Made by a program: the position numbers and the translations under genes. Below are positions 17,269 through 22,293 of a stretch of 64,000 bases of DNA, one piece after another (position 1 is the stretch's first letter; every line of letters begins with the position of its first letter). This stretch comes from a bacterium (GTDB taxonomy: Bacteria > Electryoneota > JAOADG01), in contig OY820579.1 in NCBI GenBank assembly GCA_963681965.1, forward strand, positions 2,944,001-3,008,000, given 5' to 3'. Below the pieces are notes generated by a model that did no database searches, was not told the origin of the DNA, and was given only the letters and a program-made list of their open reading frames with translations.

Positions 17269-19773
17269 TTATTTAGAGAACGTACCGATCACAATCAGTG
17301 CCAGCAACGACAATCCGATAATGAGTGCGGTAAACCCGACACAGTACATTAGCACGCGCTTCCAAGTCGGAATCGGCAGTACTTTGATCTCGTCGATCTT
17401 CCCTTCCTGCACTAACCGATCGTACCAGAGCGGTCGTTCTTCCTTCAAATATTGTTCGCTGACACTACCGGTAAAAATCACTTCGTCTAGCGGGAAGTTC
17501 TCGCTGCGCAAGTGCTCGTTGAAAAAGTGAATCGTAAAGATAAAGCCTGTTGCAAGCAATGCCTCTTCCGAGTGGATGATATGCGCCGCATTGACGATCC
17601 AACCAGGCAACAACCGGGTAAAGAATTCCGGGAACCAAAGCGTTAAACCGGAAGCACCAATTGCAGCCACACCCCAGAATACCGCGAGATAATCAAACTT
17701 CTCCCAATAAGTGAAGCGATCAAATTTGGGTTTCTTGGCAATATGGAAGAAATATCCAATATGCTGGAAGAAATCAATCGCATCCTTCGGCTGCGGCACC
17801 ATACTGTCGGGACCCCACAGCATTTTCTTGAGCGGGAGTTGCCGTTTCGCAAATCGATAGGTCAAATTTCCCAAGTGCAGTGCAAAGTACATGAACGTTA
17901 ACACTGCCGCGACGCGATGCATCAATGCCATCGTATCGAGTCCGAGGAAATTGTGTGCAATCCAGTACGCCAGTGCTGTATGGCTGTATTTAAGCGGTAA
18001 CCCGGTCATCGCCAGTGTTAAAAAGCTTACAATGACGATGCCGTGAACCACCCGGTCGTATACGCCAAACCGGCGATAACGGAATTCGCCATGCCACCGT
18101 TTGTGCGGTCCGTGACGAACCCGATCGATCATTTGTCGACCGATCCAAGCGAGTGTATGGATACCAAAAATCGCCAGTGTGATGAGCAATAACCACTTCA
18201 TCATAAAGTGGATCGCATCCAATACCGGGTGCCCCGATGGTGCCATTGGATCGTAATGTTGCAATTGCGCAACGAAATTGGCATTCGCGTTCTTATGGCA
18301 TTTGGCACAGGTTTGGACGATGCGTTGCCGTGAAATCGAAGAGGCAGGATTGTCTTTCGGCAAAATCAGATGGTGATCGTGACAGGAAATACAGGTAGCA
18401 AATTGCTCGCCCTGATATCCCAATGAATATGCTTTGCCGTGATAAGTATTCAGATATCCTGCTACGACGTTCGGATTGATTTGAAAACGCATCGTGACTT
18501 CACGATTCGCGTGACACGATCCGCAGAGTGAGATTAATGTTTGCCCGGTAAAGCGACTACTGATGCGTTCGATTTTTCGTTCGCCGTGACACGTGATACA
18601 GGTCGGGGCTTCGGAATGTCCTTTGGCAAAAGCGATCCCGTGGGCACTCCGTTCGTAATCTTTGAATTCTTTGACATGGCAGTTCGTGCACGTCAATTTC
18701 AACTTGGCTTCGGCACGTTTCTTCGGATCGGGAAGTTTAAAGTGGTACACATGACATTCGGTACAATTTGCTTGACCACCGGTGGCATTCACCATCATTG
18801 CCTTGCCGTGTGCAGTATTATTCTCCATCCGGTGACGTTCGTCGGCATGACACGTTAAACAGGTGCCGGGGATCGTCGGTTTAACGATACCAGTACCACT
18901 CTTCCCCATCTCCGTTGAATGACCGGTATGGCAGGCGGCACAAGTCATTACTTTTGCATCGACACCACTCTTGCGGTGAACGGTCTGCTCGTAACCCGTG
19001 TGACAGTTGCTGCAGGTCTGATCCATACGATCGATATGAACTTTCGAACGCGTATCTTTTACTGCAAATATTTCATGATTGCCATGGCAATCGATACAGA
19101 TCGGTGCTTTGGAATTACCCTTTTTCACCTGATCGAAGTGATGCGATGTTAGATAATTCTTCGATTGCGGTTGATGGCAGGTATTGCATCGATCGACGAT
19201 TTTCAGTCGCCAATCGGCTGGAAGCATGTTTCCGCGTTCGTTTTTGTCGTGAGCATCGTGGCAGCTTGTGCAGGATACGACAGCCTTCCCGGATTTGGCA
19301 TTGCCATGAATTGAAGAATTGAATTTCTTGACTTCCAATGCGTGGCACACACCGCATACTTTGCGGGTATCCGGTTGTTTGTTGATTTCGTGGGTACCGT
19401 GGCACTGCTTGCAATCGGGGATATTGGTAAAACCGCGTTGTTTTAAATGATCGGCAAATCCCGCCATAAATTTCTTCGAGGCGTCGGCATGGCAATCCCC
19501 GCAATTTACCGGTTTGTATGGTTTAAAATGCGGAACATCATCGAAATTACCAGTTCCGTGACAATCGGTACAGGACTGAGAACGATGCATCGACGAATCG
19601 AAGCCAGTTTGAAATACTCCGACATTGCGATTGTCGGCGCTTTTCAAAGTGGTGTCGGAATGGCATTGAAAACAGTTCGAATTATCCGACCAATTCGTCT
19701 CGGCGGCGTAGTTTAGCATCGGTAAACTACCGAATATCAATAGCGCGAGTAAGAAAACAGAGTAGCGTTTCAT
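17269..19773 (-). CDS. Multiheme c-type cytochrome (17 CxxCH) fused to a cytochrome b (Fdh/Hyd-type) membrane domain, CbcL-like
   Basis: 17 CxxCH motifs counted; C-terminal RVVH..SFLTLAMTGLPLK, MHRVAA, FDRFTYWEKFDYLAVFWG, IIHSEEALLA; signal peptide from ATG 19773. Confidence 0.9.
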   Translation of the reverse strand: MKRYSVFLLALLIFGSLPMLNYAAETNWSDNSNCFQCHSDTTLKSADNRNVGVFQTGFDSSMHRSQSCTDCHGTGNFDDVPHFKPYKPVNCGDCHADASKKFMAGFADHLKQRGFTNIPDCKQCHGTHEINKQPDTRKVCGVCHALEVKKFNSSIHGNAKSGKAVVSCTSCHDAHDKNERGNMLPADWRLKIVDRCNTCHQPQSKNYLTSHHFDQVKKGNSKAPICIDCHGNHEIFAVKDTRSKVHIDRMDQTCSNCHTGYEQTVHRKSGVDAKVMTCAACHTGHSTEMGKSGTGIVKPTIPGTCLTCHADERHRMENNTAHGKAMMVNATGGQANCTECHVYHFKLPDPKKRAEAKLKLTCTNCHVKEFKDYERSAHGIAFAKGHSEAPTCITCHGERKIERISSRFTGQTLISLCGSCHANREVTMRFQINPNVVAGYLNTYHGKAYSLGYQGEQFATCISCHDHHLILPKDNPASSISRQRIVQTCAKCHKNANANFVAQLQHYDPMAPSGHPVLDAIHFMMKWLLLITLAIFGIHTLAWIGRQMIDRVRHGPHKRWHGEFRYRRFGVYDRVVHGIVIVSFLTLAMTGLPLKYSHTALAYWIAHNFLGLDTMALMHRVAAVLTFMYFALHLGNLTYRFAKRQLPLKKMLWGPDSMVPQPKDAIDFFQHIGYFFHIAKKPKFDRFTYWEKFDYLAVFWGVAAIGASGLTLWFPEFFTRLLPGWIVNAAHIIHSEEALLATGFIFTIHFFNEHLRSENFPLDEVIFTGSVSEQYLKEERPLWYDRLVQEGKIDEIKVLPIPTWKRVLMYCVGFTALIIGLSLLALIVIGTFSK

Positions 19774-19894
19774 GGGAAATTTTCCACAATCTTTCGATGA
19801 ATAACTCGCGAATATATCTATAGAACGCTTTTCTAACAAATCCAATCCGAATCAACTTTAATTTTTTGGTTCTACTATGCTCCGATCGGATTGA

Positions 19895-21307
19895 CTATTT
19901 CACTAATTCGATTTGCTGTACTTGATTGATAGTCGGGGTTGAAAGCCTAACAAAATAGGTTCCTGAAGATAATCCCGCACAATCGATCGGTATCGAATAG
20001 GATCCGGCAGAATACTGCTGGATTGGCAATTGAATCTGTACTTTCCCAAGTAGGTCAATTACCTGGAGCGAAACTCGATCCGGTCGAGTTAGCTGGATTG
20101 GAGCTATTATCGTTGAGTTAAACGGGTTCGGATAACATGGCGATAAAGTCGTCAACTGTGGCAAATTACACGGTTTTGTTTCGGTTACTTCGAGTAATCC
20201 CTGAGAGGATAAATGCGTCAATAATAAATCGGTTCCCGAAGTGCCGGTTACGATGTAATCACTGCTAGAGGTCTGTGCGATACCATAACCTGTTTGTGAG
20301 TAGAACTCGCGTTCGTAAGTGCGTTGCCATTGTTCCTGATTTGTCGAATTTACTTTGCCGATCCAGAGTAGGAACCGCCCGGATGCAGCCTGCTGAAACC
20401 CGGTTAGAACTGCACCACCATCAGCGGTCAGAGTGCCGTGATACGCCCAACCATACAGCATTGTAAACTCGTGTCGATCGGTTTCGATACCACTCGAATT
20501 CGTACGAATGATTACCGGCATTGAGGAATCGGCATGAGATACATAGCCGAAAATTGCGTATCCACCACTCGGTATGAGTGACAAACCGAATGGCACATCC
20601 ATCCTGTTTTCACCAAATTGCCTCCCCCATTGCACTGAACCGGAGGCATCAGTATGAATCAGCCAGATATTGTAATCGGTGGTGCTGCTCTGCATATACG
20701 CAGTTATCATATACCCACCCTCTGGAGCTTGCACGACGCCGTAACCGCAGGTAGATCCCGTCGCGTGAAGATTGGTCAGCCATTGCTGATTTCCAAGTGA
20801 GTCTACTTTGAGTAACAGAATATCAGTACCGGCATTCACTACCATCGAACCTGTAATGATGAAGCCGTGATCGTCAGTGGGAGCGATTGCCAGACCAGTG
20901 CAAGCAGGTACTCGACCATTGTACAAACGGGTCCAGATCGTATCTCCGGAAAGATTCATCTTGTACAAGTACACATAATTCAGCGTTTGCCTAAAAGCGT
21001 CGCCGACGACAACAAATTGCGTTGAATTGACCGACAGGACATTGTTCGCATGCTCGGTACTATCTAGAATTTTTGTCCAAATGGTATCACCATTGCTATT
21101 GGTTCGAATCAACCAACTGTCATAGTTGTACCGGGCAGTGCTGCCAACCGCTAAAAAACCTCCATCGGATAGCGGAATTACTTTGCTGCCAGCATCGGCA
21201 CTGCTGCGATGATAATTCCGAGACCAATATGATTGTGCCAACACTGCTTGCGAGAAGAACAAAGCAAAGACAACGATTAGAATGCTGAATCGATGATCGT
21301 AACGCAT
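19895..21307 (-). CDS. Secreted repeat (beta-propeller-like) protein with T9SS-like CTD
   Basis: Signal peptide; repeated DGGF..G / WLIRTNSNGDTIW units; CYPNPFN tail; GAGG RBS before ATG 21307. Confidence 0.8.
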   Translation of the reverse strand: MRYDHRFSILIVVFALFFSQAVLAQSYWSRNYHRSSADAGSKVIPLSDGGFLAVGSTARYNYDSWLIRTNSNGDTIWTKILDSTEHANNVLSVNSTQFVVVGDAFRQTLNYVYLYKMNLSGDTIWTRLYNGRVPACTGLAIAPTDDHGFIITGSMVVNAGTDILLLKVDSLGNQQWLTNLHATGSTCGYGVVQAPEGGYMITAYMQSSTTDYNIWLIHTDASGSVQWGRQFGENRMDVPFGLSLIPSGGYAIFGYVSHADSSMPVIIRTNSSGIETDRHEFTMLYGWAYHGTLTADGGAVLTGFQQAASGRFLLWIGKVNSTNQEQWQRTYEREFYSQTGYGIAQTSSSDYIVTGTSGTDLLLTHLSSQGLLEVTETKPCNLPQLTTLSPCYPNPFNSTIIAPIQLTRPDRVSLQVIDLLGKVQIQLPIQQYSAGSYSIPIDCAGLSSGTYFVRLSTPTINQVQQIELVK

Positions 21308-21545
21308 GTTAACCTCATGATAAAACAACTACCGAATAAACTTGAATAGTATGAATTTATCAAGTTACCTATTCCAATTCTATCAAACAATGATTTTATC
21401 CATGTGACAAACAATATTTTGGTTTTCTAGGGCAATTTTTGCGACCGATCGGTCGGAATAATTACTACTATCTCCTCTGGAAATGGTAATTTTATCAATT
21501 AGGAAATGAGTTTCGTATAATTGAACAAGATAGAGGAATGATACA

Positions 21546-21761
21546 ATGAAGGGAAAAGTTGCCATTATGAAGGAAATCGGATTATACGTCCTAATTGTCG
21601 CGGCGTGGTTTGCTTTGCAGCGTTGGATCTTACCACGTATGGGGGTCTCGACTTGAGCTTCTCAAGCCTGTGCTCCGGCGGAGACACAATCCAATACGAA
21701 AGCAATCGAAACAAAATCACTACCAAGTCATAACCAAATAAATTCTGCAGATGTAAAATAA
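21546..21761 (+). CDS. Candidate small membrane selenoprotein (71 aa with Sec at codon 37; 36 aa if TGA is a stop)
   Basis: AGAGGA RBS; MKGKVAIMKEIGLYVLIVAAWFALQRWILPRMGVST-TGA-ASQACAPAETQ...DVK-TAA; hairpin 12 nt after the TGA; terminator directly after the TAA. Confidence 0.6.
21669..21688 (+). promoter_or_regulatory. Putative bacterial SECIS element
   Basis: TGTG-CTCC-(GGC)-GGAG-A-CACA stem with one bulge; G-starting apical loop 20 nt after the TGA at 21654-21656. Confidence 0.5.
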
Positions 21762-21790
21762 AAAAAGGGGCATCATTGATGCCCCTAATT
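21761..21790. terminator. Intrinsic terminator between convergent genes
   Basis: AAAAAAGGGGCATC-att-GATGCCCCTAATT. Confidence 0.7.
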
Positions 21791-21804
21791 AACGTTTTGA
21801 AAGA

Positions 21805-22293
21805 TTATCTCTCGTCAGGATCTGCCATGGGTTTCGGACCTCGACCTGCCCAAGGCGGTGGACCCATTGGGTTATCACAACGAGGACCCATCGGGCAATC
21901 GCCTCTCATTGCACCAGGACCAAAAACAGGACCACGTCCCTTTCGCATACCGGGGTGCATTCCACGATTCATGCGGGGATGCGGAGCCGCTGCACCAAGA
22001 TGATGTCGCGCTTTTACCAGTTCGCCCTCGGCTTCAGCTTCTTTTCCCTCTTTCAACAACTTCTTCGCGTTGTCGATATCTTTCTGAGCATTCTTCATCG
22101 CTTCTTCGCGCAGCTCTTCCATCGCTTTCATCCGAATCGACATTTTCTCAAGTCGCTTTTCCCAGTTGTCGATTCTTTCTTTTACCGATGGTGGATCTTT
22201 TTTATCCGGCATTTTCTTGTCGTCGCCAGCCAGTGCTCCTGTTACCCAACCCAACGCGAGAACCATCGCGAATAGGATCATATACTTCTTCAT
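21805..22293 (-). CDS. Small secreted helical/coiled-coil protein with Gly/Pro/Met-rich tail
   Basis: GGGAGG RBS, signal peptide, charged helical core, GPPPWAGRG tail. Confidence 0.7.
   Translation of the reverse strand: MKKYMILFAMVLALGWVTGALAGDDKKMPDKKDPPSVKERIDNWEKRLEKMSIRMKAMEELREEAMKNAQKDIDNAKKLLKEGKEAEAEGELVKARHHLGAAAPHPRMNRGMHPGMRKGRGPVFGPGAMRGDCPMGPRCDNPMGPPPWAGRGPKPMADPDER

Follow-up and report, generated by a model that had tools for sequence, protein, structure and literature searches.

A probable gene for a single-pass membrane selenoprotein of a widespread bacterial family in an Electryoneota genome

The gene at 21546–21761 and its surroundings

A window of 64,000 nucleotides of bacterial DNA (GenBank assembly GCA_963681965.1, contig OY820579.1, positions 2,944,001 to 3,008,000; GTDB lineage Bacteria; Electryoneota; JAOADG01) was analyzed at its positions 21546–21761 (+), where a short gene containing an in-frame TGA codon very probably encodes a small membrane selenoprotein. 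The 36-codon open reading frame (ORF) at 21546–21656 (+), which is translated into MKGKVAIMKEIGLYVLIVAAWFALQRWILPRMGVST, is closed by the TGA at 21654–21656. Past this codon, 34 further sense codons (ASQACAPAETQ...ADVK) follow in the same frame up to a TAA at 21759–21761. When the TGA is read as selenocysteine (Sec, U), the full coding sequence (21546–21761, +; read from the sequence) gives a 71-residue protein, M1...U37...C42...K71, in which U37 and C42 make up a U-x4-C pair. A Shine-Dalgarno-like AGAGGA was read from the sequence at 21532–21537 (+), with a spacing of 8 nt to the ATG at 21546. A candidate sigma-70-like promoter, TTATCA-18 nt-TATAAT, is located at 21492–21521 (+) and matches the consensus at 10 of 12 positions; two promoter-like sites were found in this region against 1.8 expected from shuffles, as judged by consensus match only.

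The hydrophobic stretch of the protein ends with ...WFALQRWILPRMGVST, and a single transmembrane helix was assigned to about I11–L29 (21576–21632, +) on the basis of an AlphaFold2 (AF2) model and the alignments described below. The conserved core L-P-R-M-G-V-S-T-U-A-S-Q-A-C occupies residues 29–42 (21630–21671, +) in an alignment of 64 sequences. Its U37 (21654–21656, +) was assigned from the presence of TGA in every match within the phylum and from its alignment with the Cys of Cys-containing homologues (Cys forms). The remaining residues 43–71 (21672–21758, +) form a non-conserved hydrophilic tail, which was predicted to be disordered from an alignment of 17 sequences and the AF2 model. A hairpin resembling a bacterial selenocysteine insertion sequence (bSECIS), UGUGCUCC-GGC-GGAG(A)CACA, lies at 21669–21688 (+) and was assigned from its energy, its positional homology with the hairpins of relatives, and the covariation in the family. 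The ribosome-binding site, the helix, the TGA, the 34 open codons, the TAA, and a hairpin starting 12 nt after the TGA had been listed in a preliminary description of this DNA, and all of them are present in the sequence. Contigs from sequencing runs of two studies equal positions 21400–21900 with zero differences, where these runs may be the window's own source.

With the 64-sequence alignment as input, AF2 predicted one helix at residues 3–31 and a low-confidence remainder, for which the mean predicted local distance difference test (pLDDT) value was 69.7 over the whole chain; the helix block gave mean values of 94 for residues 11–20 and 83 for residues 21–30. The ATG at 21567 is the counterpart of the start used in most other phyla, which mostly begin at a conserved Met 28–29 codons ahead of U. 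In the window's phylum, an in-frame ATG is found 5–11 codons further upstream in 16 of 17 loci, compared with 2/17 and 2/17 in the two other frames, and the ATG at 21546 has a better Shine-Dalgarno sequence than the alternative start. These two features together indicate that the window's phylum adds a Lys/Arg-rich N-terminal extension, and they support the start at 21546 given earlier. In the wider family, the upstream region shows no excess of in-frame ATGs over the two other frames (21 versus 15 and 23), and an in-frame stop occurs within 12 upstream codons in 51 of 114 loci. The sequences of the window's phylum contain 2–6 Lys and Arg residues before the helix and 1–2 after it. By the positive-inside rule, the N-terminus would be cytoplasmic and the Sec/Cys pair would be placed outside in this phylum.

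The selenoprotein gene is isolated between minus-strand genes, and no plus-strand gene lies behind it. On one side, a secreted protein with a Por_Secre_tail domain (19895–21328, −) was identified with Pfam, next to an 858-residue multihaem cytochrome (17269–19845, −) carrying Cytochrome_C7, Paired_CXXCH_1, and MtrC/MtrF-like domains. The latter has many CXXCH motifs in its N-terminal half, and its hydrophobic C-terminal half shows a weak cytochrome b561-like match. On the other side, a convergent gene (21805–22293, −) encodes a secreted protein of 162 residues with a high content of Met, His, Pro, and Gly, which matches no Pfam family above the cut-off. It consists of a signal peptide, a coiled-coil-like middle, and a Met/His/Pro/Gly-rich C-terminal third (HPRMNRGMHPGM..., CPMGPRCDNPMGPPPW), and the product may bind metal. 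Other neighboring genes encode a tandem Usp protein and a DAHP_synth_1 family protein, which is probably KdsA. The neighboring genes in the window finish at ordinary stops under translation table 11.

The convergent gene shares a hairpin at 21766–21786 with the selenoprotein gene. This hairpin is G+C-rich, with a 9-bp stem containing 6 G-C pairs, and its T-run lies on the minus strand; the plus-strand sequence after it reads AATTAACG. A terminator directly after the TAA had been proposed in the preliminary description. The hairpin itself is indeed there, whereas its orientation is different, as stem scoring assigns it as the intrinsic terminator (21766–21786, −) of the convergent gene at 21805–22293, which possibly also ends the plus-strand transcript. 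Owing to the sequence that follows it on the plus strand and the T-run on the minus strand, it is weak for the plus strand and represents at best a weak bidirectional terminator.

Conservation of the protein, the TGA codon, and the hairpin

Homologues were searched in 40 relatives of the same phylum by reading through stop codons, which gave a homologue in 16 of them at E ≤ 2.5e-5, each with exactly one TGA. The next match (L019; E 0.00135, two TAG) and all weaker matches were removed as non-members before alignment. Together with the window's own genome, these 16 relatives gave an alignment of 17 sequences. W, P, G, and U never change in this alignment, and conservation reaches at least 90% for L, L, V, T, S, and the downstream C. 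Conserved residues are located on both sides of U, and no conservation is seen after about residue 45. A pattern unbiased toward TGA, which combined the N-terminal residues alone with a subsequent T[AG]N codon, was run over all 79 genomes of the phylum. It gave 25 matches, all of which have TGA, and a reversed control gave 0; TAA or TAG at the critical codon, which the preliminary description had named as refuting its proposal, was found in 0 of the 25 matches. The TGA or Cys that it had expected after GV(S/P)T is kept by the homologues after GV(S/P/Q)T, together with the downstream Cys. In the 64-sequence alignment, P30, G33, and C42 are the same in every sequence, and at least 90% of the sequences share L29, T36, and U37. 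W21 of the helix is kept in 17/17 sequences of the phylum and in at least 90% of the 64 aligned rows. The conserved core of the family reads W..L....LP(R/K)xG(V/I)xT-U-x-S-x-x-C.

The breadth of the family was evaluated with a degenerate DNA pattern that allowed TGA, TGC, or TGT at the critical codon and recovered 14 of the 17 loci of the phylum. With one genome per species, this pattern gave at least 120 loci across many phyla. Among the 120 loci listed for it, 117 have TGA and 3 have Cys codons (L064 of Verrucomicrobiota, L098 of Polyangia, and L127), a proportion that is biased as a Sec-to-Cys ratio since the pattern was built from Sec forms. The carriers among the matches listed include Geobacter, other Desulfuromonadales, Syntrophobacter, Desulfomonile, Planctomycetota, Acidobacteriota, and Armatimonadota, and further Chloroflexota, Spirochaetes, KSB1, Zixibacteria, Sumerlaeota, Actinomycetota, and others. 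The TGA forms occur in at least 10 phylum-level groups, and three carriers among the matches listed are cultured isolates; TGA forms are present in Geomobilimonas luticola JCM 17780, Pelotalea chapellei DSM 13688, and Geobacter sp. OR-1.

The Cys forms are seen mainly at the protein level. A profile search of 1.84 billion representative sequences gave 1284 proteins at E ≤ 0.001, of which 72 also passed E ≤ 1e-10. The best 150 of the 1284 matches plus cluster members, 161 proteins in all, were inspected, and the motif was readable in 148 of them. At the critical site, 122 of these 148 proteins carry C and 20 carry W; the other 6 have a different residue. The Cys forms share the xSxxC continuation after the critical site. 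The W of the 20 proteins, for which no DNA was seen, probably reflects a TGA called under another genetic code. The same collection contains truncated products of 29–36 residues, including the window's own 36-residue one (P0098). Family members that bear any name are called "hypothetical protein", and one unnamed cluster of 123 members was obtained from the ESM Atlas with a score of 0.88, below the 0.9 mark, which serves as a lead only.

The frame past the TGA carries the marks of coding sequence. In each of the 130 loci scored, it runs for at least 13 codons before a stop (median 26), whereas the first 12 codons of frame +2, taken as a control, contain a stop in 43% of loci. The downstream Ser codons vary synonymously (TCC 47, TCG 32, TCT 21, and TCA 10), as do the downstream Cys codons (TGC 84 versus TGT 47), where the degenerate pattern had constrained these sites merely to KCN and TGY. 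The same synonymous spread of Ser and Cys codons was observed for the 17 loci found by the protein search. At the median, family members extend 21 residues past the Cys, and E, K, D, P, and S are abundant in this tail.

The hairpin at 21669–21688 starts 12 nt after the TGA, at the Cys codon, and exposes a GGC loop at +21 to +23 with an energy of −7.9 kcal/mol. Of 132 unique sequences from the family, 110 place the loop of their best downstream hairpin 17–24 nt after the UGA, and the commonest loop offset is 23 nt (46 sequences of 132). The loops are small and G-rich (GGA 42, GGUC 10, UGGAU 9, GUC 6, and CGUGC 6). Against dinucleotide shuffles, the downstream segment exhibited a mean z of −1.22 with 33% of sequences below −1.64 (n = 129), compared with +0.14 and 3% for an upstream coding control of equal length (n = 129), where the kinship among genomes makes the shuffle and Wilcoxon figures overstate the significance. 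Covariation was evaluated for a 7-bp stem in 46 sequences, which were chosen on the sole criterion of GGA at +24 to +26. In this stem, 88.8% of cells are paired, compared with 62.0% for shuffles, none of the 500 being as high, and sliding the partners by 1–3 columns lowered the pairing to 24–49%. Compensatory, two-sided changes occur in 7 of 7 stem pairs, with 100 double-change cells where 30 would be expected. The set of 46 includes the window and its closest relative, though their loops are GGC and GGU at +21 to +23, and they therefore count against the stem. This geometry agrees with the bSECIS model quoted in the available part of a 2026 review (PMC13188914), in which a small apical loop 16–37 nt from the UGA carries G in its first two positions. 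A scan of positions 21300–22000 with Rfam at E ≤ 10 gave four weak matches, all well under the gathering scores.

The hairpin also leaves a trace in the protein. Asp is found at the position C+4 in 42 of 122 Sec forms versus 5 of 122 Cys forms, and its GAY codon provides the last two bases of the GGA loop. This bias fits an RNA-level constraint confined to the Sec-decoded forms. The apparent E/G-D-R protein motif after the Cys (codons 6–10 past the UGA) is largely the hairpin read as codons. The SECIS of Sec forms can hence influence how conserved the overlapping codons look at the protein level, which calls for caution in motif-based assignment of function.

The selenium machinery, whose presence the preliminary description had proposed to check, is encoded in the genome containing the window, where SelA (428.6 bits), SelB (363.6), SelD (336.7), and tRNA-Sec (63.8) were all detected above the cut-offs. 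The selD match contains one in-frame TGA (L150; G000:C1:4177383–4178309, −; outside the window), and the SelD of this genome is probably itself a selenoprotein. Of 41 genomes sampled from the phylum, 40 have a SelA above the cut-off, so that the Sec trait is general there and does not discriminate carriers of the gene from non-carriers. Two full-length SelA matches each were observed in the relatives G006, G007, G011, G012, G016, G017, G021, G025, G029, G033, and G037, unlike the window's genome with one match; the second SelA of those relatives may be a paralogue or a SelA-like enzyme.

Interpretation and alternative explanations

From the conservation of TGA or Cys at the critical site, the covarying hairpin, and the Sec machinery, the locus at 21546–21761 (+) is very probably a genuine monocistronic selenoprotein gene for a single-pass membrane protein of a widespread family, in agreement with the 71-residue membrane-anchored selenoprotein missed by ORF calling that had been suggested beforehand. 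Insertion of Sec at U37 is very likely, judging from the sequence evidence. The UGA at 21654–21656 would be decoded by SelB and tRNA-Sec under the guidance of the hairpin that starts at the Cys codon. The product is envisaged as a short Lys-rich N-terminus, one helix, a membrane-proximal LP(R/K)xG(V/I)xT-U-x-S-x-x-C motif, and a disordered hydrophilic tail. U37 and C42 may form a selenol/thiol pair that cycles through a selenylsulfide, and thioredoxin-fold proteins may recycle this pair or accept electrons from it. Taken jointly, the cycling and the exchange of electrons with thioredoxin-fold proteins are plausible, with a chance slightly short of even.

These suggestions on function derive largely from gene neighborhoods and fusions. 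Three ORFs on each side of 137 loci were collected, the resulting 610 ORFs were clustered, and the recurrent clusters were named with Pfam. ArsR-type regulators were found at 12 loci, in 8 of which they are the first gene upstream or downstream on the same strand. Thioredoxin was found at 11 loci, 8 of them with the gene directly downstream on the same strand, where one locus is counted twice (L008 and L119). The other recurrent neighbors are ECF sigma factors (11 loci), OmpR-type regulators (9), histidine kinases (8), TlpA/redoxin (8), zf-HC2 anti-sigma factors (6), AcrB (6), DsbD_TM (6), NikR (5), class-V aminotransferases (5), and DUF3313 (5). In one family of the window's phylum (L005–L012), at least one of thioredoxin, ECF sigma factor, and zf-HC2 anti-sigma factor lies downstream on the same strand in 7 of 8 loci, and all three are present downstream in L008 and L011. 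The arrangement of L005–L012 is reminiscent of thiol-stress sigma/anti-sigma units. In two Acidobacteriota loci (L123 and L133), the thioredoxin gene overlaps the end of the selenopeptide gene.

Fusions to thioredoxin exist for both forms. In two Sec forms, L028 from a metagenome-assembled genome of Pirellulales and L125, the frame continues into a thioredoxin domain; the Cys-form proteins P0133 and P0096 carry one scored at 121.8 and 105.7 bits (TIGR01068). A complex prediction between the motif segment and the thioredoxin domain of the Cys-form fusion P0133 gave no verdict (score 0.00) and carries no weight in either direction. Since links to thioredoxin-fold partners recur across several phyla, thiol/selenol redox chemistry with such partners was adopted as the best guess. 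The "redox or metal-binding" function named in the preliminary description can be inferred in either direction, as the neighborhoods provide hints for both: thioredoxin, TlpA, CcdA, and the zinc-finger anti-sigma factors for the one, and ArsR and NikR for the other.

The second direction constitutes the alternative that survives best, and it concerns the functional part only. The selenol/thiol pair might bind or transfer a soft metal or metalloid (Hg, As, Cu, or Ni), or carry sulfur or selenium as a persulfide or perselenide. Such a role has a precedent in the Sec/Cys pairs of small membrane proteins, namely the MerT-like and SO_0444-like transporters covered by the available part of a preprint (10.1101/2022.07.06.499078). 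It is also favored by the ArsR genes and NikR near the loci, by a cysteine-desulfurase-like class-V aminotransferase directly upstream on the same strand in five Acidobacteriota loci (L049, L095, L111, L123, and L133), and by the Met/His/Pro/Gly-rich secreted product of the convergent gene at 21805–22293. On the other hand, a lone helix cannot make a transport path, and no metal transporter recurs among the neighbors save the AcrB-type pumps. The thioredoxin fusions and adjacency, in turn, recur in several phyla. The ArsR family, moreover, includes thiol and persulfide sensors. A metal, sulfur, or selenium role is regarded as possible but rather unlikely.

The remaining alternatives question the decoding itself. 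If the TGA were a true stop, the locus would give a 36-residue membrane peptide only, and the conserved downstream part would be an RNA element such as a terminator or regulator. Gene callers do output exactly this 36-residue product (P0098), a regulatory RNA role is conceivable for the conserved hairpin, and the RNA partly dictates which residues follow the Cys. This is nevertheless very unlikely, because the aligned residue is Cys with the same xSxxC continuation in 122 of 148 proteins, the downstream Ser and Cys codons vary synonymously in a frame that stays open in all scored loci, the frame runs into thioredoxin domains in L028 and L125, and the occurrence of TGA in 25 of 25 matches of the phylum is unexpected for an ordinary stop. 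Translation of the UGA as Trp, Cys, or Arg by near-cognate read-through or local reassignment is more improbable still. The frame can be read in that way, as the W in 20 collection proteins illustrates, but the genome has the complete Sec machinery with a SelD match containing an in-frame TGA, the neighboring genes in the window end at ordinary table 11 stops, the hairpin covaries and possesses the loop and spacing of a bSECIS, and the homologous residue is Cys, the usual counterpart of Sec. Least probable of all is a selenium-sensing leader in which UGA passage controls the next gene, e.g., trxA or arsR, for although many loci have the next same-strand gene 1–50 nt away or overlapping (gaps of 1, 5, 10, 13, 15, 30, 41, and 42 nt; overlaps of 29 and 35 nt), the window gene is monocistronic, the helix and the LPxxGVxT-U/C-xSxxC core are conserved as protein, and the abundant Cys forms are incapable of such sensing.

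Several observations weigh against the selenoprotein interpretation and its redox function, in addition to the bias of the 117:3 proportion and the kinship among genomes mentioned above. The window hairpin taken alone is within chance, as the 81-nt region gave a z of −0.56 with 48 of 200 shuffles folding equally well, and the segment from +10 to +48 gave −0.73; it is modest, bulged, and located 3 nt upstream of the commonest register. The neighborhoods are heterogeneous, with the top neighbor family reaching just 12 of 137 loci, and the metal-regulator neighbors (ArsR 12 and NikR 5) suit a metal or metalloid role equally to a redox one. The window gene has none of the thioredoxin, ArsR, or sigma neighbors known from other loci. 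For the wider family, the number of Lys and Arg residues after versus before the helix (more in 35, equal in 38, and less in 56 proteins) gives no clear topology. It is the family that lifts the locus above chance, through the invariant TGA, the residues conserved on both sides of it, the Cys homologues, and the covariation of the hairpin at the same place.

If the selenoprotein interpretation is correct, a protein of 50–70 residues joins the bacterial selenoprotein families with a broad range that includes genetically tractable, cultured relatives of Geobacter. It might be among the taxonomically broadest of these families, hidden from annotation because gene callers halt at UGA. Selenoproteome counts would then be shown to overlook micro-proteins systematically. 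The locus would also provide a compact natural UGA-plus-SECIS cassette of about 35 nt (12 codons) for studies of SelB recognition. It further raises the role of a lone membrane-tethered selenol/thiol pair, for which defense against thiol stress, membrane-proximal reduction of oxidants, and handling of metals, sulfur, or selenium are candidates.

Comparison with known systems

The preliminary description could assign the protein to no characterized family, which remains the case after comparison with the databases. The window protein has no Pfam-A or NCBIfam (release 20) match at E ≤ 10, and the 17 aligned members and 12 small Cys forms match no Pfam or NCBIfam model at E ≤ 1 beyond sub-threshold chance matches. 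A sequence search of the PDB with the 64-sequence profile gave chance matches to a helix of G-protein-coupled receptors alone (E ≥ 0.12). No single-helix U-x4-C family appears in the 119-family Table 1 of the available part of the 2026 review (PMC13188914), and other families are described in the available parts of the deep-Sep paper (PMC12013277) and the preprint by Haft (10.1101/2022.07.06.499078). A full-text literature search found no description of the family, where supplementary tables could list it under a generic label.

The canonical redox selenoproteins of bacteria, such as the Sec-containing thioredoxin, glutaredoxin, and peroxiredoxin-like (Prx-like) proteins compiled in Table 1 of the same part of PMC13188914, share with the present family a UGA aligned with Cys and a nearby resolving Cys. 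Also common to them are a G-rich, small-loop hairpin about 20 nt after the UGA and the dependence on SelA, SelB, SelD, and tRNA-Sec. They differ in that the window family is composed of one helix and a disordered tail without a thioredoxin fold or globular domain; the AF2 model of the window protein lacks this fold, and a thioredoxin domain is merely a C-terminal add-on in the rare fusions. Furthermore, the motif here is U-x4-C rather than UxxC or CxxU, and the size of 50–70 residues lies under that handled by most pipelines. The nearest family by motif is TsoA (LULAxC, NF045695; Table 1 in the available part of PMC13188914), which has a short Sec...Cys segment and a hydrophobic residue after U in common with the window protein, whereas its spacing is U-x3-C instead of U-x4-C. 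The model NF045695 was not matched by the window protein at E ≤ 10, and no selenoprotein model was matched by the 17 members or the 12 small Cys forms at E ≤ 1.

A likeness to the eukaryotic SELENOS and SELENOK is found in the architecture, which is an analogy and not membership. Both are small, span the membrane with a single helix near the N-terminus, and continue into a hydrophilic, disordered tail; in SELENOS, thioredoxin reduces the Sec, which has a Cys as its partner. Their Sec lies within a few residues of the C-terminus and is decoded through an element in the 3′ untranslated region, whereas the U of the window protein is residue 37 of 71, at 7–8 residues after the helix, and its bacterial SECIS is intragenic. 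For homology to the SELENOK and SELENOS families of Pfam, 0 families were obtained with the window protein at E ≤ 10, and the Cys forms gave sub-threshold chance matches. By this analogy, the family might, as a speculative and rather doubtful proposal, represent a bacterial functional counterpart of SELENOS and SELENOK, i.e., a minimal helix-anchored selenylsulfide relay at the membrane surface that is recycled by thioredoxin-fold proteins; in the window's phylum, the Lys/Arg-rich N-terminal extension would put its Sec/Cys pair at the outer face of the cytoplasmic membrane. The decoding mechanism is the known bacterial one, while the family, its size class, and the membrane-proximal U-x4-C design are new relative to the catalogues compared.

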